From: Candidatus Latescibacterota bacterium
GTDB lineage: Bacteria; Latescibacterota; UBA2968; UBA8231
DNA length: 64,000 bases
NCBI GenBank assembly: GCA_965243025.1
Contig: CBDETY010000003.1
Coordinates: 1,568,001 to 1,632,000, forward strand
Direction: 5' to 3'
Part shown: positions 449 to 34,558 of the stretch, piece by piece
Layout of the letters: each line of letters starts with the position of its first letter
Position numbering within the stretch: the first letter of the stretch is position 1
Program-made: the position numbers and the translations under genes
Notes under the pieces: generated by a model
Seen by the model: only the letters and a program-made list of their open reading frames with translations
What the model was told of the DNA's origin: nothing
Databases searched by the model: none

Positions 449-2724
449 CCCCCCGTCTCCTTCTACAGGCGCTGCTGGCGAGCAGCCTGCTTGCGTCCGC
501 CTTTGCGGCCCCGGGGACCGGCGCCGAGATCAGCGGGCGGGTTGCGGCGGCAGGCGACAGCACCGCCCTCGCCGGGGCGACCGTGTACCTGGAAAGGACC
601 GGGCAGGGTTCACTTGCAGGGGAGGGAGGCAGCTTCCGGTTCGCGGCCGAGCCGGGGAGGCAGCTTCTCATCGTCTCTTTTGTCGGCTACTTCACCCGCA
701 CCGTTTCCATCGAGATCGGGGAAGGGGAATCACTCGATCTCGGCAGCATTCTCCTCGAGGAGTCGGCGGTGGAGCTGCCCGGAGTCGTGGTTACCGCGAC
801 CCGGAGGCCGCAGCCGTTCGCCGAGGCGCCGGTCAGCATGTCGGTGACCGGCCGCCGCGAGCTTTCCGGTTTCAACTCCTTCAGCCTGTCCGGGCCGCTG
901 CGCCATCTGCCCGGTGTCACCCAGGTCGGAAGCCAGGTCAGCATTCGCGGGTCGAGCGGGTACAGCCGCGGCACCGGCAGCCGCGTGCTGCTGCTTTTCG
1001 ACGGGGTCCCGGCGCTTTCCGCCGATCAGGGGGACATCAAGTGGGACATCATCCCGGTCACCGAGGTGGAGCGGGTCGAGCTGATCAAGGGGGCGGGCTC
1101 GGCCATGTACGGGACCGGCGCCCTCGGCGGCGTCATAAACGTGCTGACCCGCTCCCCCTCGGAGCTTCCCGAGACCCGCTTCCGCCTCGTCAGCGGCCTC
1201 CACGACCAGCCGGCGCACCCCTCCTGGAAGTGGCGGGACCTGATGTACCTCGGCGGCGTCGACGTCAGCCGTTCCGGCACGACCGCCGCCGGCGGCTACC
1301 TCGTCTCGGCGGGCCACAAGCGCGGCACCGGGTACCGCGAGAACAGCGAGTCGACCCGCTACAACCTGTTCGCCAAGGGGACGCGCCAGCTCGGCAGGCA
1401 TACCCGCTGGACCGGCCTGGCCAACTGGGCCCGGGACGATCACGAGGTCTTCCTCCAGTGGAAGGACCGCGCCGCCCCGCTGCTGGTGCCGGAAGGGGAC
1501 CGCGGGGCCGCCACGGTCTCCTGGAAGCTCAACCTCAACACCGAGGTGACCCACCTGGTGAACCCGGGGACCAACCTGCGGTGGCGGGGGTTCTACTTCC
1601 GCACCGACTTCGACAACACCCGGGCCGCCGGCGGCCTGGCCTCGGCGGGCCACAAGATCGGCACCGAGCTGCAGCTCGACCTCGGAGAACGGCTCGGCAG
1701 CCGCGGGGTCATCGTCGGCGCCACCGGGATCTACGACCTGGCGCGGTCCCCCGGCGATTTCCTCGGCGAGCGCACCGTGCTCAACACGGCGCTGTACGCC
1801 CAGAACGCGGTGGACTTCCGGGACCTCGAGCTCACCCTCGGCATGCGCGCCGACCTTCACCGCCGCGGGGCGGGAAAGGCCCCGGAAGCAGGGGGACCGT
1901 GCGGGTCCGCAACCGGCAACGGCCGCATCCCCGCCCACACGGAAGCCCAGTTCAGCCCCCAGGCAGGGCTGTCCTGGAAAACGGCCCCCGGCGCCATCCG
2001 GCTCTCGGCCGGCCGCGGCTTCCGGGCCCCCTCGGTCACCGAGATCCACGTCCAGGCCGACGCCTCCGGAATCCTCGTCTGCCCGAACCCCGACCTCGCC
2101 TCGGAGCACAGCTGGTCGTACGAGGCGGGAATCAGGCGGGTTATCGGAGGGGCACTGGCCATCGACGCCGCCCTGTTCTGGAACGAGTTCGAAGGCCTGA
2201 TCGAAGCCAGGCCCGAACCGACCTCCTCGGTCGTCCCGAGGGCCAGCTTCCGCAACATCTCCAGGGCCCGCATTCGCGGGCTGGAGCTCGAGCAGCAGCT
2301 GGCGCTTCCGTTCGGGGCGCTATGGAAGGGCTCCTACACCTGGGTCGACGCGGTGGAGTTCCTCGCCGAGGGGGTACCGCTGCCGCCGTACTGCCACGAC
2401 GACCTGCATCCGGGCGAGACCGCGCCGCTTCCGTACCGGTCCCGGCATTCCGTCAACTCGAGCCTGGGCATGGCCAGGGGGGCGAGCCGCGGCGGTCTCA
2501 GCTTCCGCTACATGAGCCGCTTCGAGCGGGTCTCGGGCCTGTTCGCCGAGTGCCGCCGCGACCACCTGCCGGTATACCTCGTCGACGCCTTCGTCGAGCG
2601 CCGGATCGGGCCGGCGACCCTCACCCTCCGCGTCGACAACCTGTTGCGCTACCACTACATCCTGTCCGAGCGCGAGATGCGCCCCATGCGCCGGGTGACG
2701 GCGGCGATCTCGGGGACCCTGTAG
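445..2724 (+). CDS. TonB-dependent receptor with N-terminal carboxypeptidase-regulatory-like domain
   Basis: Signal peptide MTPRLLLQALL; VSFVGY domain; TonB-box-like VVVTATR; plug motifs SIRGS and ERVELIKGAGSAMYGTGALGGVIN; barrel motifs GRGFRAPS, NPDLASE, VDNLL. Confidence 0.93.
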   Translation: MTPRLLLQALLASSLLASAFAAPGTGAEISGRVAAAGDSTALAGATVYLERTGQGSLAGEGGSFRFAAEPGRQLLIVSFVGYFTRTVSIEIGEGESLDLGSILLEESAVELPGVVVTATRRPQPFAEAPVSMSVTGRRELSGFNSFSLSGPLRHLPGVTQVGSQVSIRGSSGYSRGTGSRVLLLFDGVPALSADQGDIKWDIIPVTEVERVELIKGAGSAMYGTGALGGVINVLTRSPSELPETRFRLVSGLHDQPAHPSWKWRDLMYLGGVDVSRSGTTAAGGYLVSAGHKRGTGYRENSESTRYNLFAKGTRQLGRHTRWTGLANWARDDHEVFLQWKDRAAPLLVPEGDRGAATVSWKLNLNTEVTHLVNPGTNLRWRGFYFRTDFDNTRAAGGLASAGHKIGTELQLDLGERLGSRGVIVGATGIYDLARSPGDFLGERTVLNTALYAQNAVDFRDLELTLGMRADLHRRGAGKAPEAGGPCGSATGNGRIPAHTEAQFSPQAGLSWKTAPGAIRLSAGRGFRAPSVTEIHVQADASGILVCPNPDLASEHSWSYEAGIRRVIGGALAIDAALFWNEFEGLIEARPEPTSSVVPRASFRNISRARIRGLELEQQLALPFGALWKGSYTWVDAVEFLAEGVPLPPYCHDDLHPGETAPLPYRSRHSVNSSLGMARGASRGGLSFRYMSRFERVSGLFAECRRDHLPVYLVDAFVERRIGPATLTLRVDNLLRYHYILSEREMRPMRRVTAAISGTL

Positions 2725-26215: not shown

Positions 26216-26469
26216 GCAAGAGCGGAAGAAGTCGCCGAAACCGCACGGCGATATCTCGGGAGCAGTCCGCCTGCAGGGGGTGTTCCGGACTGCGTGGACC
26301 GCACCCCGGGACGGGACAGCCAGGAACACCCGGCAGCCAACCGTCACCGCCTGCAGGTGGATCCCGACCCGGGCGCGGGGAAGAGTATCTCTTCCCTTAC
26401 CCCTCCAGTTGGTTTCTGCTGGTCCAGCCAACCCGGCCCTGACCCGTCCCCGGCGTCGCTGTAAAAACT

Positions 26470-28686
26470 TCAGGTCAGCTGCCCACGCAGGGCGGCCACG
26501 ATGTCTCTCATCACCCGGGGGTCGGAAAGCACGGACCGGTGGCGCTGGGGCAACCACAGCTCCCAGCCACCGGAATAGGCCTTGTACCGGCTCCCTGCGA
26601 TCTTTGCCGAAGCGGGGGAAACCACCGGATCCCCATCGATCCGGAAGCAGGTGGCGCGATCGGCCATTGCGTGGAATCCGGGGTTTTCGAAGAAGCCGCT
26701 GCCGGGAGCGAGGTCGGCCAGGAGCCGTGGAAACCGGCAGCCCGGCCATTTCGATGCAACCGCCACCCACGTTCCCCGAAACGGAGTCGCCAGCGCAAAT
26801 ACCCGGTTCCGGCAGTTCTCGCGGGCGTGCTGAACCGCGACCAGGCCTCCGAGGCTGTGCCCGACGTAATCGGCTTCCGCACCGGGGGGAACCGGTACAT
26901 GCGCAAGGAGCTCTGCCAGCGGTCTGTCCTGGTTCAAATCCGAAAAAACAACCTGGGTCTCGGCGTTGGTGAAGCAGCGCCCCAGTGTATCGAGGAACGG
27001 TTTCCAGCTCTCGGCGCTGCTGTCATAACCGGGCAGGAGAACGAGGGGCCGGGAAAGGGGTCGGGGGTCGGCGGCGAACCGAGCCAGGTCCTTCCGGGCC
27101 CGGTCCCGGTCCGCCCCGTGTCTTCGACGGGCGATTGCGGCAGCAACGGCCAGTCCCAGCGCGCACAGGAGCAACAGGACGTTCCCGTGGCGTACGTAGA
27201 AGGTCGCCGGAGCCGGTGACGGAAGGGTGACGTCAATGGCCGTTGTTTGAAACAGTTCCGTAGCCGCCAGAATCCTTCCATCGGGGGCGACCGCCCCGGA
27301 GATCCCGGTGTTTGCAGCACGCACCAGAGGTAGCCCGCTCTCCACGGCGCGGACGGCAGCCATTGCCATGTGCTGGTACGGTGCGGAGGTGTAACCGAAC
27401 CATGCGTCGTTGGTGGTGTTGATCAGCAGGTTGGCCCCGTCAAGCGCAAGGGTTCGGGTAATCCCGGGGAAAATCGATTCGTAGCAGATGAATATGCCGA
27501 GGCGGAGATCCCCTTCCGGCAGTGCCAGTGCCCGATGCGAGTCCCCGTGTGTGAACCGCCCGCTTTCGGCGGTGAGCTGATCGAGGTAGGAGAACAGCTG
27601 CGGGAGGGGCAGGTACTCGCCGAATGGAACCAGGTGTACCTTGTCGGCGAAATCGATGAGCTCTCCCCTCCGATCCATCAGGAAGGCCCGGTTGTAGATC
27701 GGGTGGCCGGGATCTCCTCTTCGGCCTTCGAGGCTGCCTACCAGGATGGGAGTATCCAGTTGGCGCGCCAATCCCGAAACCCGCTCCCGGTACTCTTCGA
27801 AGAACGGGTCGGTCAGGTAGTAGGGGAGGGCGGTCTCGGGGAAAACGATCAGGTCGTAGCGTTCACCGGGGTTTTCCGCCAGGAAGTTCCGCGTCAGTTC
27901 GATGTAGTGGTCGGTGGTACGCCGCTGACGGTCCTCCTTCCACTTTGCGTCCTGGGGAATACTCCCCTGGATAACAGCCACCCGAGCGTGGGAGGCGGAT
28001 GGTTCGCCCGGGATCGTCGCCAACCGATGATTGCCATAAGCAACGAGGCCCACCATCCCTATCAGAACCGGACCGGCGCAGAACGACAGGCGTCGCGGTA
28101 CCAGGATCGCCTGGGTTACAGCGGAATTCACCAGGACCACGGCGAAACTCAGGCCGTAGATTCCGGCGACGGATGCGAACTGCAGCACGGGGAGGTTCCC
28201 ATGCTGGGAATACCCGATCTGCTGCCAGGGGAAACCGGTGAGGATCCAGGACTGGGCCCAATCGAGCAGAACCCATACCGACGCGGCCAGCCAGCTGAAG
28301 AAGGGACTTCCCGACGGCAGGGACCGGCATATGAGAAAGAAGAGGGCCGGATAAAGGGCCAGATAGAGAACGAGCGCGACGGTCGATGCCAACGCCTGGA
28401 TCTGGTTGAGTCCGCCGTAGTTTTCCAGCGTCTCCGCAATCCAGTAGATGCGGCCCGCACCTGCTGCGATCCCGCATACGAGGCCGGTCAGGAACATCCT
28501 GCCTGCCGCGAGTGGAATGCCCTGTCTCAAGCCGCACAGAAGTGCGGGCACGAGACAGACCCATGCGAGGAGACCGATGTCGATCGCTGGGATGCTCAGG
28601 GAGTAAAGCGTCCCTGAACACCCCCCTGCAACGAGAAGAATCAGGAGTCTCGGGACGCGTCGCTCCCCGAAGCCCTCCCTCCTCAC
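26470..28686 (-). CDS. lnt: Apolipoprotein N-acyltransferase fused to a C-terminal alpha/beta-hydrolase
   Basis: TGFPW, IQGSIPQ, triad FPET / KVHLVPFGEY / ICYE, TNDAWF, RAANTGIS; then LLPGY, GHSLGG, ATPFRG, GDPVV, RH. GTG start overlaps the upstream stop (GTGA). Confidence 0.92.
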   Translation of the reverse strand: MRREGFGERRVPRLLILLVAGGCSGTLYSLSIPAIDIGLLAWVCLVPALLCGLRQGIPLAAGRMFLTGLVCGIAAGAGRIYWIAETLENYGGLNQIQALASTVALVLYLALYPALFFLICRSLPSGSPFFSWLAASVWVLLDWAQSWILTGFPWQQIGYSQHGNLPVLQFASVAGIYGLSFAVVLVNSAVTQAILVPRRLSFCAGPVLIGMVGLVAYGNHRLATIPGEPSASHARVAVIQGSIPQDAKWKEDRQRRTTDHYIELTRNFLAENPGERYDLIVFPETALPYYLTDPFFEEYRERVSGLARQLDTPILVGSLEGRRGDPGHPIYNRAFLMDRRGELIDFADKVHLVPFGEYLPLPQLFSYLDQLTAESGRFTHGDSHRALALPEGDLRLGIFICYESIFPGITRTLALDGANLLINTTNDAWFGYTSAPYQHMAMAAVRAVESGLPLVRAANTGISGAVAPDGRILAATELFQTTAIDVTLPSPAPATFYVRHGNVLLLLCALGLAVAAAIARRRHGADRDRARKDLARFAADPRPLSRPLVLLPGYDSSAESWKPFLDTLGRCFTNAETQVVFSDLNQDRPLAELLAHVPVPPGAEADYVGHSLGGLVAVQHARENCRNRVFALATPFRGTWVAVASKWPGCRFPRLLADLAPGSGFFENPGFHAMADRATCFRIDGDPVVSPASAKIAGSRYKAYSGGWELWLPQRHRSVLSDPRVMRDIVAALRGQLT

Positions 28687-29009
28687 GACTCGAGGTAGTC
28701 GGCGATTGGAGTACGGATTTTTTCCAGCGCGGAGCGCTCCAGAGCGGCAACGACTTTTCTGTCCATTTGCAGCTTGGAGGCGACCTGCCCAGGGGACTTC
28801 TTGTGCTGAAAGCGCAGCTCGACGACATGAAGCTCGTCTCGAGTGAGCTTGCCGAGTGCCTCCATTACCTGCTGTCGCAATTCCTGGCTTTCGACACGGT
28901 CGAGAGGGGTCTCGGGAAGAAATTGGGCCAGAAAACGTTCGTCCAGACCGACGCGTTTGGGCTTCCCCACACCGGCTGGATGGTCGCTGATGCGGCGGAA
29001 TGGACTCAT
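28683..29009 (-). CDS. Stand-alone sigma-70 region 4 (HTH) protein, 108 aa
   Basis: ALGKLTRDELHVVELRF...GQVASKLQMDRKVVAALERSALEKIR matches the sigma r4 pattern; no region 2. Confidence 0.75.
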   Translation of the reverse strand: MSPFRRISDHPAGVGKPKRVGLDERFLAQFLPETPLDRVESQELRQQVMEALGKLTRDELHVVELRFQHKKSPGQVASKLQMDRKVVAALERSALEKIRTPIADYLES

Positions 29010-29070
29010 GTGCTACTGGAGGGGGAGAGCGAAAAGCTCTCTCGTGCAATCGGTTGGAGGGATGGCTTCA

Positions 29071-29254: not shown

Positions 29255-30589
29255 CTACCTGTGGGCTGGAACCTCCTCCTGCCCGCCGACCTCACTGGCA
29301 ACTGGCACTCGTTTCATTTGCACTCGGGCAATTCGCTGTCCCTCGACCTTGAGGATCTCTATGTCCAGCCCGGGAATCTGCAGGATCTGTCCCTCATCCG
29401 GAACTTCCCCGAGGTGATCGTAAATGAACCCCCCGAGGGTGTCGAAACCGTCGCTGGGAAGATCGCTCTCGAGGATCTCGTTCAACTCGTCGATGTTGAT
29501 CCTCGGGTTGACGATGAGGATATCTCCCGAACGCCACTCGAACAGCGCTTCTTCCGCATCGTATTCGTCCTGGAGTTCACCCACGATTTCTTCGACGAGG
29601 TCTTCAGTGGTGACCAATCCGGCCGTGCCGCCATATTCGTCAACGACGATTGCCAGGCGGGTTCGCGCGACGCGCAGGTCGCGGAGCAGCTCGTCGATCT
29701 TCTTTGTTTCGGGGATGTAGTACGGCTCATGTGCGAAGGGCAACGGCTCAGACCCGCCCCCTTGTTCTTCCATCAGCTGGGCAACCGACATTTTCATGCC
29801 GATATCCCGGCGGTGAACGAGCATTCTCAGGAGGTCCTTTGCATAGACGATTCCCCGGATTTTGTCCAGCGACTCTTCGAATACCGGCACCCGCGAGTGG
29901 CCCTTCTCCTCGATCAAGCGAAGCAAATCCCCCAGCGATGAGGAGATCTCTATCGAGGTGACATCGACCCGGGGAACCATTACCTCCCGGACCACGCGAT
30001 CGTGGAAGCCGAAAACCCCCTGGATCATGTCGCGCTCGGTTTCCTCCAGTACGCCCGTTTCCTGTTCGGAGTCGACTATGTTTCTCAATTCCGCCTCGCG
30101 CGCTTCCTTGAATTCCTCCCCCGAAGCATCGCTGCGTGAAACCCTTTCTACGAGACGGGCCGGAACGCAGAGAAGCAGGTGAATGGGTGCGAAAAGCAAC
30201 GCCAGGCCAGGAATCCTCGCCTCCTCGCCATCCTCTTCGAAACGAACCCTCCGGGCCAAACCGGCGACCAACGCAAGAAATACCGATGCGACTCCCGCCG
30301 CCGGGACGGTAACGGGTTCAGGAAGTGAGAAGGACAACAGGAAGTGGGTGATTGACACTGAAAGAATGACGACGCCGAGGGTCTGGCCGATCCTTGCCAT
30401 GATGTGGAGCAGGTGCCTGGGCTCGTGGATGCGGAGCATGATGGCCGCCCGCCGTACGCCGCTCTCGAGCATGCGCTCGAGGGATGATCTGGAGAGGGAA
30501 GTGAAGGTCGCCTCGTAGGATGACAACGCGAAAAGGCCGATAAAGGCCAGCACGACCAGTACTGAAGCAGCTATTTGTGGGGGTTCCAA
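29255..30589 (-). CDS. corC: HlyC/CorC family CNNM-CBS transporter
   Basis: N-terminal TM domain, VREVMVPR, HSRVPV, VVDEYGGTAGLVTTEDLVEEIVGE, DTLGGF. Confidence 0.92.
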   Translation of the reverse strand: MEPPQIAASVLVVLAFIGLFALSSYEATFTSLSRSSLERMLESGVRRAAIMLRIHEPRHLLHIMARIGQTLGVVILSVSITHFLLSFSLPEPVTVPAAGVASVFLALVAGLARRVRFEEDGEEARIPGLALLFAPIHLLLCVPARLVERVSRSDASGEEFKEAREAELRNIVDSEQETGVLEETERDMIQGVFGFHDRVVREVMVPRVDVTSIEISSSLGDLLRLIEEKGHSRVPVFEESLDKIRGIVYAKDLLRMLVHRRDIGMKMSVAQLMEEQGGGSEPLPFAHEPYYIPETKKIDELLRDLRVARTRLAIVVDEYGGTAGLVTTEDLVEEIVGELQDEYDAEEALFEWRSGDILIVNPRINIDELNEILESDLPSDGFDTLGGFIYDHLGEVPDEGQILQIPGLDIEILKVEGQRIARVQMKRVPVASEVGGQEEVPAHR

Positions 30590-30598
30590 AAAGGCGGA

Positions 30599-31081
30599 CT
30601 ACTCCTTTCGCGCAACACTGCCGGCCAGGACAGTCTGGGGGGTTTGGCTTGTCAACACATCGGTCTCCGACTCCATGAAAACCAGCTTTTCCGGGGTATC
30701 GTGATCGAAACCGGCAATATGGAGGAGGGCGTGAACCATCAGGCGACCGATTTCCTCAAGCTCGCCAATTTTCATTTCCGCAGCCTGGGAGGACGCACGG
30801 TCTCTCGAAATGTAGATTTCACCGCGCACTCCTTCAATCGCAGCCAGGTTCTGGGGAGGGGTATCGCTTTCAGCGTAATTGAAAGACAACACGTCGGTTG
30901 TGCGGTCTATTCCCCGAAACGTCGAATTGAGCCGGCGAAGCTGACTGTCATCGGACAGTATCAGGTTGATGTCGCCATCGATTCGGTGGCGTTCCATCAC
31001 CCGCTCCGCCAGCTGTTCGAGGTAGGGACGAACCGAAGGAATGAATTCAGGTTCGTCGAATTGGCACAGGATTCTCAGCAT
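30599..31081 (-). CDS. ybeY: rRNA maturation RNase YbeY
   Basis: LNSTFRGIDRTTDVLSF, GEIYIS, HALLHIAGFDH. Confidence 0.95.
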   Translation of the reverse strand: MLRILCQFDEPEFIPSVRPYLEQLAERVMERHRIDGDINLILSDDSQLRRLNSTFRGIDRTTDVLSFNYAESDTPPQNLAAIEGVRGEIYISRDRASSQAAEMKIGELEEIGRLMVHALLHIAGFDHDTPEKLVFMESETDVLTSQTPQTVLAGSVARKE

Positions 31082-33374
31082 TCCTCGCTTCCTTGCGGTC
31101 CCCTTTTTTCTGCCACGGATACTCAAGACGCCCGTGCAGGGTTCCCATCAGAACCGGAATGAAACTCTCCTCAATTCGGTGAAGGTCTCTCAGGGTAAGG
31201 GGACATTCATCCAGTTCCCCGCTGGTGAATTTCTGTTGAACTATCTGGCGAACGAGTTGCCTGACGCGGTCCGGGGTGCGTTCGCTCAAAGTCCGGGCAG
31301 CGGATTCGACCGAGTCGGCCAGCATCAGAATGCCCGCTTCCCTGGTCTGGGGTTTCGGCCCGTCGTAGCGAAAATCGTCGCGGCGGACATCCCCGACTCC
31401 GAGCTCTACGGCGCGGGTGTAGAAGAACTCATGAACCGTGGTTCCGTGGTGTTGAGGAATCAGATCGATCAGTGCTTTGGGAAGCCCGTGTTCCTCCGCC
31501 AGCTCGATCCCGTCTTTCACATGTGAGTCGATGATCAGCATGCTCATACTGGGGGTCAATTGATCGTGGGGATTGCGGCCACCTTGCAGGCTTTGATTCT
31601 CGGTGAAGTATTCCGGTTTCAGCATCTTGCCGATGTCGTGGTAGTAACATCCTACTCGCGCCAGCAGGGGATTGGCGCCGATCGCCTGCCCGGCAGCTTC
31701 GGACAGGTTGGCCATTATCAGGCTGTGGGTATACGTGCCCGGCGCTCGGATGGCCAGCTCCCGCAGCAGGGGGCGATTGAGGTCCGACAGCTCGAGAAGG
31801 GTAATGTCTGTGGTGATGTGGAACAGGCTCTCGAAGATTGGGAGGAGACCCTGAATGACGATTGGCGCCGCCAAGCCTGTGAAAACACCGGGAAGCACAT
31901 GACCGTAGATCTCCTCGTTCGGAATGAACCTCAACAGGTCGCTGCCTGCAATCAGAAGGCAGTACGAGGCCGGAAGCAAAATCATGGCCCGATAGAACTG
32001 ATTGCGGTGGCGGACGTGCCTGACCGCATGGACGGAAACGGCCGAGGTGAGAGAAAGAACCAGGGTGACGTAAAAGTCCCCAAACAGGCTGCCGATGAAT
32101 AATGCCAGCAGAAACGAAACCACAAGCCCGATCTGTGGGCTCAACAGGATGGTCATCAGCATCGCCGCGAGGGGAGTGGGCACAAAATAGGTCTGGATTT
32201 CGTTGGCGTGGATGTAGGCGGCGATAGCGGCAGTCCCCATTGAGATCAGGGCCAACAGGGTCAGCTTGGCGGCACTTGCGTATATCTGCGGCTCCTGGGT
32301 CGCCAGGTAATTGCCGAAAATCAAAAGCAGGAATGCAGCAATAACGGCAGCGGAGAGTATCTGCAAATAGCGGGTTGTCGGATGCTTCAACTCCTCGCTG
32401 GCGAACTGCCGGGCAAGCGCTTCCAGCGCTTCGACGTGGGTCGCATCCACCTTCTGATTCTTGTCGATGATCATTTCGTCGCGGAGATAGCGGCGCATGA
32501 TACTGGCCACACTGCGGCGCGCTTCGGCGCGCAGGCGGCCCGTTTCACTTTCGTCGACACTCAGATTGGGATAGACGAACAAAGCCAGGAGCTCGTGGAC
32601 AGCTTCCGCCACGCCACGTTCTTCAATCGGCTGGTACGACTCGATCAGAGACATCAGCTCTCCGCGCTTCAGGTCGCTTTCGCTGTGCAGCAGCTCGATC
32701 GAGAAGGGGGTCTCGCCTACGCGAACCTGATCCGTGACAGCCAGGATATCTCCCTGTTTACTGGAGATGACGCCAGTGGAGTAGAGGTCGGTCAGCAACT
32801 GAACCCAGGAGTGTTGCAGGAGGTCGAGTGAATCGGCCGCAGTCGAGGAAAACAGGGATATCAGCTGCTTGAGAGAGGTTTCCGAAAGCAGGGGCACAAC
32901 GCCCGGCAGTTCCCGTTGCAGACGGCGATACTTGAGCGAGTCGGGCATCTGCATGCGGCTGTTGGGCACCAGCACTGCCAACACCGAGTCGAAGCGGGAC
33001 AACTGCAGCTCCTTGACCTCGTCATGAAGCTGCAGGACCGTGGGCACGGTCTTTTCGGCTGAATTGCGTTCGATTTCCAGCTCTTCAGTGCTTTTTCGGA
33101 CGAGAAAGAGAAATGGGGCGTTTATTCGCTCAGGAGCTACGCTGCCCTCCCTCAGCTCGCTGATTCCGTGAGGTCGTTGGAACGGGGAGAGATAGGTCAG
33201 CAGGCCCATCACAGCGATAGCGAGCAGGATTCGAAACAGACGCATCCCACGCGAGGGAGACTGTATTCTCCCTGAGCGCGAGGGGGAGGTTGTGCTCGAG
33301 GTCCCGGCCCGAAAGCGTCGGAAGGTCGAAAAGAGATTCAAGACAGGTTCCCCGTTACCGGGGTCCCGGTGCAC
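31047..33374 (-). CDS. 7TM-HD phosphohydrolase (PgpH-like)
   Basis: Extracytoplasmic domain, 7 TM segments, LLELSD, APGTYTHS, YYHDIGK, QHHGT, GPKPQTRE, LADSVE. Start codon uncertain. Confidence 0.92.
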   Translation of the reverse strand: MHRDPGNGEPVLNLFSTFRRFRAGTSSTTSPSRSGRIQSPSRGMRLFRILLAIAVMGLLTYLSPFQRPHGISELREGSVAPERINAPFLFLVRKSTEELEIERNSAEKTVPTVLQLHDEVKELQLSRFDSVLAVLVPNSRMQMPDSLKYRRLQRELPGVVPLLSETSLKQLISLFSSTAADSLDLLQHSWVQLLTDLYSTGVISSKQGDILAVTDQVRVGETPFSIELLHSESDLKRGELMSLIESYQPIEERGVAEAVHELLALFVYPNLSVDESETGRLRAEARRSVASIMRRYLRDEMIIDKNQKVDATHVEALEALARQFASEELKHPTTRYLQILSAAVIAAFLLLIFGNYLATQEPQIYASAAKLTLLALISMGTAAIAAYIHANEIQTYFVPTPLAAMLMTILLSPQIGLVVSFLLALFIGSLFGDFYVTLVLSLTSAVSVHAVRHVRHRNQFYRAMILLPASYCLLIAGSDLLRFIPNEEIYGHVLPGVFTGLAAPIVIQGLLPIFESLFHITTDITLLELSDLNRPLLRELAIRAPGTYTHSLIMANLSEAAGQAIGANPLLARVGCYYHDIGKMLKPEYFTENQSLQGGRNPHDQLTPSMSMLIIDSHVKDGIELAEEHGLPKALIDLIPQHHGTTVHEFFYTRAVELGVGDVRRDDFRYDGPKPQTREAGILMLADSVESAARTLSERTPDRVRQLVRQIVQQKFTSGELDECPLTLRDLHRIEESFIPVLMGTLHGRLEYPWQKKGDRKEARNAENPVPIRRT

Positions 33375-33377
33375 TCC

Positions 33378-34355
33378 TTAACGGCATTCCGAATCGGAGC
33401 TGTTATCGTGGGTTTCGTAGGCCTTGATGATTCGTTGGACAAGTGGATTTCGAACGACATCGCGTTCGGTCAGGTGAACGAATGCCAAACCGGATACATG
33501 GTTCAGGATCCGGCGCGCTTCCACAAGACCGGATGGCTGGGAGCCGGGCAAATCCGTCTGGGTGACATCACCGGTAATGACCACTTTGGAGTTTGCTCCC
33601 ATCCTGGTCAAAAACATCTTCATCTGTGAAGCAGTTGTATTCTGGGCCTCGTCGAGGATGATGAAGGCGTCGTTAAGCGTGCGTCCCCGCATGAAGGCCA
33701 ACGGAGCAACCTCCACGATCTTCATGCTTTGAAACCGGGATAGACGTTCCGGCTCAAGCAGGTCCTGGAGGGCGTCGTAGAGAGGTCTGAGGTATGGGTC
33801 GACTTTATCTTCAAGGGCTCCAGGAAGAAACCCCAGGCTTTCTCCTGCTTCGACGGCTGGCCGTGCCAGCACAATACGGGAGACTCGCTTTTCCCGAAGG
33901 GCCGCGACAGCTGCCGCAACTGCCAGGTAGGTCTTGCCGGTTCCGGCAGGACCGATCGCAAATACTGCATCGTGCCCTTCGACCGCTTCCAGGTAGTGCG
34001 CCTGTCCAACCGTTCGCGCGACAACGGTCCTTCTGTACGTCTTGATTCCACTGTCGTTCCCGATTTCGGGGATTGGGGGATAATTGCCCGGGTCGATCTG
34101 ATCCTGAACCAGGAGAGTCTTTACTTCCTCCTCGCTCAAACGCGGATTCCTTCGGATTGATTCGACGACATATCCAAGCAGCCCCGATACGTGCTCAACC
34201 GACTTCCGTGGGCCGTTGAGGTGAAGATGGTCTCCACGCGCTACAATCTTGACCTGGGAGTTCCGCTCGATGGAAGAAAGATGCTCGTCATTTCTGCCGA
34301 AAAGAACGAGAGGGTCTATCTCCGCCAGGGAGATTTTCTTATTCAGGGTTTCCAA
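33378..34355 (-). CDS. phoH: PhoH family ATPase
   Basis: GPAGTGKT, RPAVEAGESLGFLPG, FMRGRTL, DEAQN, DVVRNPLV. Start approximate (TTG). Confidence 0.95.
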   Translation of the reverse strand: METLNKKISLAEIDPLVLFGRNDEHLSSIERNSQVKIVARGDHLHLNGPRKSVEHVSGLLGYVVESIRRNPRLSEEEVKTLLVQDQIDPGNYPPIPEIGNDSGIKTYRRTVVARTVGQAHYLEAVEGHDAVFAIGPAGTGKTYLAVAAAVAALREKRVSRIVLARPAVEAGESLGFLPGALEDKVDPYLRPLYDALQDLLEPERLSRFQSMKIVEVAPLAFMRGRTLNDAFIILDEAQNTTASQMKMFLTRMGANSKVVITGDVTQTDLPGSQPSGLVEARRILNHVSGLAFVHLTERDVVRNPLVQRIIKAYETHDNSSDSECR

Positions 34356-34558
34356 GCAGGTGGTGGATGGGGAGTCGGCCCCCCCATGGTGGAGGACAGG
34401 TGCGGAGTGGGAACTCTCGGAGGGACTGGAAGATAACGCACAAAGGGGTCCGAGCACCTGGTTCCAGGTATGCTCGAACCCCTGGGAAGATCAGGGCGTG
34501 GTCAATCGCTTCGGAATCCGACGACAATCGCCCTTAATGAGAAGATGTAGCCGGGAAA

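Follow-up and report, generated by a model that had tools for sequence, protein, structure and literature searches.

The 64,000-nucleotide stretch of Candidatus Latescibacterota DNA analysed here (the window) contains a reading frame in which an apolipoprotein N-acyltransferase (Lnt) seems to run directly into an alpha/beta hydrolase. This raises the questions of whether the two are truly one protein, and of what a hydrolase might do at the end of Lnt. One lysophospholipid is produced for each lipoprotein matured by Lnt and, to our knowledge, the disposal of this by-product outside the Proteobacteria is largely unknown. The pairing proved to be real and conserved; it is an apparently new architecture built from known parts, and a concrete candidate for the disposal step. 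The longest form of the reading frame in the ORF list covers 26470..29049 on the minus strand. The GTG at 28686 gives a protein of 738 aa plus stop (26470..28686, minus strand), and close homologues begin with a methionine at the equivalent position in an 18-sequence alignment (A1). An earlier, sequence-only reading of this DNA had described a single continuous ORF comprising a full Lnt, its last transmembrane (TM) segment and about 210 aa of hydrolase; the minus-strand translation agrees, as do the profiles, alignments and structural models described below.

Residues 1–524 (27115..28686; this and all further features lie on the minus strand) form the Lnt module, which scored 346.2 bits against the NCBIfam model TIGR00546 (lnt), where the cut-off is 132.9. 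Within it, the membrane domain LNT_N (PF20154; residues 24–188, 28123..28617), whose helices are present in the full-length model, scored 116.9 bits against a cut-off of 27.1, and the nitrilase-like, predicted periplasmic CN_hydrolase domain (PF00795; residues 235–488, 27223..27984) scored 135.3 bits against 23.2. The module aligned end to end with E. coli Lnt (5VRG; query 8–524 with chain 10–515) and is therefore complete, stopping where E. coli Lnt stops. The E-K-C triad named in the sequence-only reading was identified as E284 in PETALP (codon 27835-27837), K349 in DKVHLVPFGE (27640-27642) and C401 in FICYES (27484-27486). These motifs match those of E. coli, and all three residues are invariant in A1 and in an alignment of 21 fused proteins with overall identity down to about 42% (A5). 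The fusion resembles the solved Lnt proteins of E. coli and P. aeruginosa (5VRG, 5N6H and 5XHQ) in LNT_N, CN_hydrolase, E-K-C triad and terminal TM8, but canonical Lnt stops no more than a few residues beyond TM8, whereas the fusion continues for 214 residues that make up a separate serine hydrolase domain.

TM8 (residues 503–522; 27121..27180), VLLLLCALGLAVAAAIA followed by RRR, was located by a hydropathy scan and by alignment to TM8 of E. coli Lnt. A charged stalk helix, alpha0 (residues 523–539; 27070..27120), extends it into the hydrolase in both the domain and the full-length models, and in the latter TM8 and stalk form a single continuous helix, residues 502–539. Stalk residues A530 and L534 are invariant in A1 and A5, and the charged helix is also conserved in stand-alone relatives of the hydrolase. 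The helix pattern of the model, the hydropathy scan, the co-linearity with 5VRG and the RRRH cluster after TM8 are compatible with the eight-TM layout of Lnt, in which the nitrilase domain lies between TM7 and TM8 and both termini are cytoplasmic, as a predicted topology. A cytoplasmic position for the hydrolase domain would follow from the full-length homology to E. coli Lnt together with the RRRH cluster, in agreement with the cytoplasmic Lnt C-terminus of the sequence-only reading.

The remaining residues, 540–738 (26473..27069), were modelled as a lid-less alpha/beta-hydrolase domain (pLDDT 94.4, pTM 0.92). All of the motifs noted earlier (LLPGY, GHSLGG, ATPFRG, GDPVV and QRH) were found in the translation, as LVLLPGYDS (548–556), GHSLGG (609–614), ATPFRG (633–638), GDPVV (685–689) and QRHR (714–717). 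The triad read from the sequence, Ser611 (codon 26854-26856), Asp686 (26629-26631) and His716 (26539-26541), follows the canonical order in the model, with GHSLGG after strand 606–610, D686 after 678–683 and H716 after 700–704. Residues G553, Y554, G609, H610, S611, G613, P635, G638, T639, D686, R715 and H716 are invariant in A5, while L612, G614, G685 and P687 are nearly so and are invariant in A1. Across a wider, 49-sequence family alignment, D686 and H716 never vary, and S611 is nearly invariant (90% or more). A further residue, Cys571 in the motif RCFTN, is nearly invariant in A1 and A5.

The predicted structure has the alpha/beta-hydrolase fold. Lipases and phospholipases led the structural matches, with 5h6g first (Z 17.2, 191 residues aligned, rmsd 3.6) and Pseudomonas lipase 1ex9 (Z 16.8), BlEst2 (Z 16.7) and PlaB (Z 16.3) also near the top; the top matches in Foldseek were likewise lipases, with probability 1.00. 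The match list is flat, with 395 chains at Z >= 8, and a generic alpha/beta hydrolase would give a nearly identical one. At the sequence level the domain lies under every specific family cut-off: its best score was against Abhydrolase_6 (PF12697; 24.7 bits for the domain alone and 20.0 for the whole protein, cut-off 26.3), and no match to PGAP1-like (PF07819), DUF676 (PF05057) or Lipase_2 (PF01674) was found at E <= 10. Six of 17 stand-alone relatives pass Abhydrolase_6; P0026 (30.9 against 24.3 bits), P0032 and P0033 pass PGAP1, and others DUF676 or Lipase_2, with these matches confined to the elbow region. Stand-alone relatives also match Palm_thioest. The substrates of the PGAP1, DUF676, Lipase_2 and Palm_thioest families are lipids or acyl-proteins, and the Atlas neighbours of the domain belong to similar families. 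With PGAP1-like, DUF676, Lipase_2, DUF7379 and Abhydrolase_6 the domain shares the G-H-S-x-G-G elbow, a capless minimal fold and a lipid-facing biology.

The best solved sequence relative was RavL of Legionella pneumophila (Lpg1108; 7X2P, 'putative lipase'), which the family profile matched across the whole domain (E 1.6e-15) with its HS-GG, D and H motifs in register, and which superposed with Z 14.0. The available text of PMC11696984 describes RavL as lid-less, with a predicted Ser-Asp-His triad and no assigned activity. Unlike the fusion, RavL is a secreted, soluble effector that lacks any Lnt or TM part, and it has about 15% identity to the domain model. By sequence, the domain would appear to stand near PGAP1, DUF676, Lipase_2 and RavL. 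The term 'lipase-type' used in the sequence-only reading is thus borne out by the fold and the neighbouring families, but not by any specific Pfam family, since no such cut-off was reached. In a search for related loci (A4), four of 22 were true relatives and the remainder were generic GHSLGG hydrolases. All forms of the family appear membrane-tethered, through TM8 of Lnt, a lipoprotein-type signal or N-terminal TM segments. A lipobox and a hydrophobic N-terminus were found in 14 of 65 stand-alone relatives, which are therefore probably periplasmic, so that the family is not bound to the cytoplasmic face.

The continuity of the frame across the junction was examined in region 27050-27150 against contigs of other studies; X1, which contains the whole stretch, may be the source sample. 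A look for RNA runs containing it found none listed. Record 14 of X6 spans 26963-27491 with no differences, record 20 of X8 spans 26839-27164 with 15 substitutions and no gaps, and record 5 of X5 spans 27100-27319 without an indel. The contigs of these three further studies therefore cross the junction, which the sequence-only reading had proposed to check, without stop, frameshift or indel, and the sole indel reported in the comparison, at 26448, lies beyond the stop codon of the fusion ORF. All 17 protein clusters that carry the C-terminal domain at near-full length also carry LNT_N and CN_hydrolase (identity 40-89%). For three of the 17 the public name is only 'apolipoprotein N-acyltransferase', and a hydrolase Pfam domain is precomputed in only two, so that the second domain is effectively invisible in public annotation. 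With these clusters, seven full-length genomic copies and the indel-free junction contigs, an assembly artefact or readthrough was rejected.

The fusion was found in nine of 168 Latescibacterota genomes, all within one family. The seven full-length genomic copies come from four genera and have tails of 214-245 aa; with fragments included, the nine genomes represent five genera. Between the four genera the domain is 39-45% identical, and the short stalk is alike in each. Unfused Lnt1 orthologues end 0-25 aa past TM8 (18 of 18 sampled in the same bacterial family), and the domain is absent from Lnt1 orthologues in 57 of the 65 genomes with a match. The partner of the hydrolase is always of the Lnt1 type and never Lnt2, and fused genomes have no other Lnt1-type copy. 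The genome in question also encodes a second, canonical Lnt; in sister genera, the second Lnt paralogue (Lnt2) is joined in frame to TatC.

The sequence-only reading would have been undermined had relatives encoded Lnt and hydrolase as two separate genes. This possibility was rejected: in relatives there is either the same single ORF or an Lnt by itself, and in no case a pair of neighbouring genes. With this query, the 159 other genomes of the phylum yielded no stand-alone hydrolase domain at E <= 1e-5. A near-length search for close stand-alone relatives returned only P0091, a 155-aa fragment and one weak match of 29% identity. The 268-aa P0091 starts, in another frame, within the end of the nitrilase domain and is probably a split or frameshifted copy. 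A single origin of the fusion was also considered and set aside; in a tree of the Lnt core (27 rows, one to five chosen per genus) the fused copies do not group together, but the backbone is unresolved, the only informative clade being that of genera g17 and g18 (support 100/97). The domain has apparently been lost inside genus g18.

A full-text literature search found no published description of an Lnt joined to an alpha/beta hydrolase, in line with the sequence-only reading, and the architecture appears to be so far undescribed. The sole Lnt fusion found in the literature is the one named in that reading, the mycobacterial Lnt-Ppm1 (Rv2051c / BCG_2070c), in which, according to the available text of PMC3850990, an N-terminal Lnt and a second, C-terminal catalytic domain share one ORF. 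The present fusion would be only the second kind. The two differ in their partner, a polyprenol-monophosphomannose synthase in Lnt-Ppm1 and an alpha/beta hydrolase here, and no match to a glycosyltransferase of the GT2 type found in Lnt-Ppm1 was obtained in the C-terminal domain of the fusion. They also differ in their unfused relatives: the parts of Lnt-Ppm1 are described in the same source as adjacent genes in other actinobacteria, whereas the unfused relatives studied here lack the domain altogether.

The reading that we favour, tentatively, is that of a bifunctional inner-membrane enzyme, an Lnt with a tethered deacylase of inner-leaflet lipids that possibly clears the lysophospholipid made by Lnt. 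Residues 1–524 would act as a working apolipoprotein N-acyltransferase, with its nitrilase-like domain on the periplasmic side, taking an acyl chain off a phospholipid, attaching it to the lipoprotein N-terminus and leaving a lysophospholipid. TM8 would bring the chain back to the cytoplasm and continue as a rigid helix into a serine hydrolase of about 200 aa, with Ser611-Asp686-His716 positioned directly beneath the inner leaflet. The likeliest job of this domain would be to deacylate membrane lipids at the cytoplasmic face and, more specifically, it may be a lysophospholipase or transacylase by which the lysophospholipid from the Lnt reaction is removed after its arrival in the inner leaflet. 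A point against this explanation is that Lnt forms the by-product in the periplasmic leaflet while the hydrolase is predicted to be cytoplasmic, so that a flipping step would be required. The architecture, its conservation, the intact triad and the lipase-like fold are observed or modelled directly; what we infer is catalysis, the lipid nature of the substrate and, most of all, the connection with the by-product. If the coupling is true, one polypeptide both produces and clears a membrane-damaging intermediate, a new means of preserving the inner membrane during envelope biogenesis; if it is false, what remains is a clean and conserved new architecture within a candidate phylum.

In such a role the hydrolase would give Lnt its own substitute for the routes that E. 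coli has in LplT-Aas or PldB. In the available text of PMC11416262, the lyso-PE released by Lnt is recycled in E. coli by LplT-Aas. LplT-Aas and PldB are a possible functional analogue, in that Lnt-made lyso-PE is dealt with at the cytoplasmic face; there is, however, no homology to them, and LplT-Aas re-acylates rather than hydrolyses. With E. coli queries, LplT and full-length Aas were absent from all nine fused genomes. E. coli LplT (E <= 1e-10) and full-length Aas matched one and the same set of five of the 76 family genomes, none of them fused, with Aas only partial in G100. As 62 of the 67 unfused family genomes also lack both by the same queries, the absence does not set the fused genomes apart, and it was discarded as an uninformative correlate of the fusion. 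A broader version, in which the cytoplasmic Lnt C-terminus serves as a docking point that links periplasmic lipoprotein acylation with processes across the membrane, with the hydrolase clearing or re-using the by-product in place of LplT-Aas and Lnt2::TatC coupling the Tat export of lipoproteins to N-acylation, we consider doubtful.

It is unlikely, though well worth weighing, that Lnt serves merely as an anchor, the hydrolase being a phospholipase A or lipase that generally turns over or remodels membrane lipids and is uncoupled from N-acylation. Relatives of the domain sit on unrelated anchors (lipoprotein signals or TM segments of their own), so that any tether seems to be enough; judging from the Lnt2-TatC fusion of the same bacterial family, the Lnt C-terminus would simply be a permissive fusion point, and the distribution is patchy, with the apparent loss in g18. 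Against this stand the retention of the fusion with an equally short stalk in four genera while the domain diverged to 39-45% identity, the lack of a stand-alone copy among the 159 other phylum genomes (E <= 1e-5) and the exclusive pairing with Lnt1-type, never Lnt2, proteins. Another alternative is a thioesterase or protein deacylase, whose cytoplasmic substrates would be acyl-ACP, acyl-CoA or S-acylated proteins instead of glycerolipid esters. This is rather improbable: the matches that point to it, namely weak Palm_thioest and Thioesterase Pfam hits in relatives and the structures of PPT2 (1pja, Z 14.7), TesA (6fvj, Z 14.8) and BioH (4etw, Z 14.6; BioH is also the best single-sequence PDB match), are weaker than those to lipases and mostly cover the nucleophile elbow only, and the gene neighbourhood holds no pointer to fatty-acid synthesis. 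The nearly invariant and otherwise unexplained Cys571 may also speak for it.

A still lower probability is given to an acyltransferase or transacylase that re-acylates the lysophospholipid or passes acyl chains from lipid to lipid as LCAT or LPLA2 do. LCAT-family neighbours in the Atlas and for P0039, the match to lysosomal phospholipase A2 (4x90, Z 14.5) and the fact that E. coli PldB has transacylase activity speak for it, whereas the predicted domain is minimal and lid-less, with no cap or acceptor-binding subdomain. That the C-terminal region is a non-catalytic or regulatory appendage, or a product of faulty assembly or gene calling, is very improbable. P0091 does resemble a split or frameshifted copy, but the triad is invariant, and the artefact reading is already largely refuted by the genomic copies, clusters and junction contigs described above.

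The bifunctional enzyme that we favour would be encoded at the usual place for lnt. Upstream on the same strand lie a corC-type gene (CNNM/CBS/CorC_HlyC; 29255-30589), ybeY (30599-31126), a 7TM-HD gene (31047-33374) and phoH (33378-34457), forming a block at 29255..34457. Canonical lnt is likewise found next to corC, ybeY and phoH, and the order in E. coli is ybeZYX-lnt; the fusion occupies the ancestral phoH-ybeY-corC-lnt position. Immediately upstream of lnt is an ORF of 108 aa (28683..29009) with a Sigma70_r4 domain only. Judging from the coordinates, two bases of its stop codon overlap the GTG start of lnt, so that the stop must be TGA (GTGA).

A single polypeptide unites a complete Lnt with a lipase-like serine hydrolase that is intact and conserved. 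An ORF scan of the window gave a minus-strand frame open from 29049 to 26470, and translation from a GTG at 28686 gives a 738-residue product (26470..28686); in an 18-sequence alignment the Met of close homologues aligns exactly with this start. Between corC and lnt, a 108-aa ORF on the minus strand (28683..29009), a candidate gene, has Sigma70 region 4 as its only domain (25.7 bits; cut-off 24.1). By the coordinates, the lnt GTG overlaps the stop codon of this ORF by two bases, so the stop must read TGA (GTGA); the overlap suggests translational coupling.

Pfam searches placed LNT_N at residues 24-188 and CN_hydrolase at residues 235-488, both far over their cut-offs, and the NCBIfam Lnt equivalog model scored 346 bits, its cut-off being 133. 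Residues 8-524 aligned with residues 10-515 of E. coli Lnt (5VRG), indicating that the Lnt module is complete and has the same end point as the E. coli enzyme. The Lnt triad is E284, K349 and C401, and the final hydrophobic segment in a hydropathy scan, residues 503-519 followed by RRRH, is the counterpart of E. coli TM8 in the alignment. Every feature testable here assigns the protein to the Lnt family. The hydrolase motifs listed in the sequence-only reading were all found in the translation (as LVLLPGYDS, GHSLGG, ATPFRG, GDPVV and QRHR).

When residues 520-738 were searched by word index against 5.8 billion proteins, with candidates confined to near full length, 17 clusters of 676-764 aa emerged, each with LNT_N and CN_hydrolase; identity over the C-terminal part was 40-89%. 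HMMER, run exhaustively over 1.84 billion representatives, found no more than 74 matches at E <= 1e-3 and 17 at E <= 1e-10; in the nine best the match was the C-terminal end of a longer protein with Lnt upstream. Seven full-length genomic copies, from four genera, carry 214-245 residues beyond TM8. The sequence-only reading had proposed a read-level check of the junction; across 27050-27150, contigs of three further studies span it with substitutions only and zero indels, and the sole indel reported falls past the stop codon. A fourth run was identical over the whole stretch and is possibly the source sample. An artefact of assembly or gene calling was rejected in view of the 17 clusters, the seven genomic copies and the junction-spanning independent contigs.

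Two deviating sequences were seen. Contigs of run X8, labelled sponge metagenome, are mostly 95-99% alike and have 117 letters at 27984-28102 swapped for 120 others, a related-strain replacement that keeps the frame and codes for approximately residues 196-235, near TM7 and the beginning of the nitrilase domain. A 268-aa representative (P0091), 86% identical to residues 520-738, starts out of frame in the last part of the nitrilase domain and continues into TM8 and the hydrolase; a frameshift or mis-assembly of the fused gene in another metagenome is its probable origin.

The appended domain belongs to the alpha/beta-hydrolase superfamily, outside any curated specific family. The window's own copy fell below every specific Pfam cut-off (best Abhydrolase_6, 24.7 bits against 26.3), and its best single-sequence match in the PDB was BioH (E 6.5e-4). 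In a 49-sequence family alignment G34, G94, P116, G119, D167 and H197 show no variation, and the nucleophile Ser is nearly invariant. Searched with the profile of this alignment, the PDB gave Legionella RavL (7x2p_A, 'putative lipase') as a match across the full domain (E 1.6e-15), followed by true lipases and BioH. RavL is described as a lid-less protein with a Ser-Asp-His triad (predicted only) and no assigned activity (PMC11696984). An AlphaFold2 model of the domain (pLDDT 94.4, pTM 0.92) is a minimal alpha/beta hydrolase with a helix, alpha0, in front. The top Foldseek matches were lipases (Streptomyces MAS1, MAJ1, BlEst2, Pseudomonas lipase, CalB and Bacillus LipA), and an exhaustive structural aligner gave 5h6g (Z 17.2), 1ex9 (Z 16.8), 6wpx (Z 16.7), the phospholipase PlaB (Z 16.3) and monoacylglycerol lipase (Z 15.7).

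In a full-length model (pLDDT 82.9, pTM 0.80) residues 502-539 form a single unbroken helix, in which TM8 extends as a charged stalk into the hydrolase strand 548-551. Both Lnt termini are cytoplasmic in E. coli structures and RRRH follows TM8, so the hydrolase is predicted to be on the cytoplasmic side, close beneath the inner leaflet; the two catalytic domains are accordingly predicted to lie on either side of the inner membrane. The segment at about residues 640-668, past the ATPFRGT strand (WVAVASKWPGCRFPRLLADLAPGSGFF), has many basic and aromatic residues and can be read as a putative interfacial membrane-binding patch. Among 65 further representatives (P0026-P0090), stand-alone relatives of the domain, 19 have a loose lipobox within their N-terminal 45 residues, combined in 14 cases with a hydrophobic N-terminal stretch, and others have N-terminal TM segments of their own, as assigned by a heuristic rather than a trained predictor. 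From the lipobox-type starts, relatives of a domain carried by a lipoprotein-maturing enzyme appear to be lipoproteins themselves.

Lnt draws its acyl chain from the sn-1 position of PE, with lyso-PE as the remainder, and in E. coli LplT flips lyso-PE, which Aas re-acylates at the cytoplasmic face (PMC11416262). The hydrolase would deacylate an inner-leaflet lipid, the most attractive substrate being the lysophospholipid made by Lnt. This reading, a coupled lipid or lysolipid deacylase, is the one we favour, if tentatively. The pair of LplT and full-length Aas is present in five of 76 family genomes (Aas is only partial in G100); they are found in none of the nine fused genomes, but in only 5 of 67 unfused ones too, which makes this a weak comparative test. 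The pair is thus rare in the family; in three genomes LplT and Aas homologues share single frames of 1146-1178 aa, of the LplT-Aas tandem fusion type (G131:C101, locus L050; G147:C108; G101:C149).

Given the lipobox-type or TM N-termini of the relatives, the domain family looks membrane-tethered in every form, the side varying and not always cytoplasmic; a phospholipase for which Lnt is only an anchor is a possible, less favoured explanation. The list of structural matches is flat, with 395 chains at Z >= 8, and backs an alpha/beta hydrolase most like lid-less lipases and no specific substrate. Stand-alone relatives (241-283 aa) match PGAP1, DUF676, Lipase_2, Palm_thioest and DUF7379, mostly near the elbow, and language-model neighbours of the domain belong to the same kinds of families; a thioesterase or protein deacylase seems unlikely, and a transacylase more unlikely still. 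That the domain is non-catalytic, or an artefact, we consider very improbable. The coupled deacylase remains our first choice.

The domain is present in 9 of 168 Latescibacterota genomes (5 of 49 genera, one family only), two of the nine being fragments at the ends of contigs. When the whole protein served as query, a match of the Lnt1 paralogue type appeared in 65 of 76 family genomes; the alignment reaches residue 735 or 736 in eight and ends at about 510-555 in the other 57. Unfused Lnt1 orthologues, 18 of our choice at one to five per genus, all terminate 0-25 residues past TM8. No stand-alone copy of the domain was found at E <= 1e-5 in the other 159 genomes of the phylum, so this is not a split-versus-fused pair: the suggestion that relatives might encode two separate genes did not refute the fusion, the unfused relatives having Lnt without the domain. 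In the Lnt-core tree, the backbone of which is unresolved, the fused copies do not group together. Within the clade of genera g17 and g18 (100/97), fused G157 and the fused pair G161 and G158 form a paraphyletic set with respect to an unfused subclade (100/100), consistent with an old fusion that was lost later in that clade. Domain identity (39-45%) parallels Lnt-core identity (43-49%), which fits co-inheritance of both parts.

The one Lnt fusion found to be described is mycobacterial Lnt-Ppm1, whose partner is a mannose-phosphate synthase (PMC3850990), whereas the partner here is an alpha/beta hydrolase. No description of another Lnt fusion was found in full-text literature, nor of an Lnt-hydrolase fusion, subscription journals and InterPro lying outside that scope; the architecture is provisionally undescribed.

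LNT_N has two matches in the window's own genome, and two Lnt copies are the rule across the family. The fused gene belongs to the Lnt1 type and is the sole such copy in fused genomes. Directly upstream, on the minus strand at 29255-34457, lie phoH, a 7TM-HD membrane phosphohydrolase gene, ybeY and a corC-type gene (CNNM/CBS/CorC). The order phoH-ybeY-corC-lnt is the classical ybeZYX-lnt neighbourhood of E. coli, known from Proteobacteria, and the same-strand genes indicate that it has been retained in Latescibacterota with the 7TM-HD gene inserted. The second, canonical Lnt (522 aa; G000:C3:6476953-6478521, or 502..2070 of locus L010, minus strand) has E-K-C motifs of its own, PETAVP, KMHLVPFGE and LICFES.

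In sister genera the second paralogue, Lnt2, reads without a stop into a complete TatC, as in an 814-aa plus-strand ORF (L042, 1478-3919) with LNT_N, CN_hydrolase and TatC 1-208/208. The linker is low-complexity, acidic or proline-rich. All five loci fetched for this (L042, L043, L045, L046 and L047; genomes G139, G164, G167, G157 and G135, three genera) have the fusion, of which no description was found in the literature searched, and in at least 30 family genomes the Lnt2 open frames span 801-983 aa. The TatC N-terminus and the Lnt C-terminus are both cytoplasmic, so that such a fusion is topologically possible. In the window's own genome tatC (L051, 1167..2096, minus strand) stands about 1.4 kb downstream of Lnt2 on the same strand, with an RraA-like gene on the opposite strand between them.
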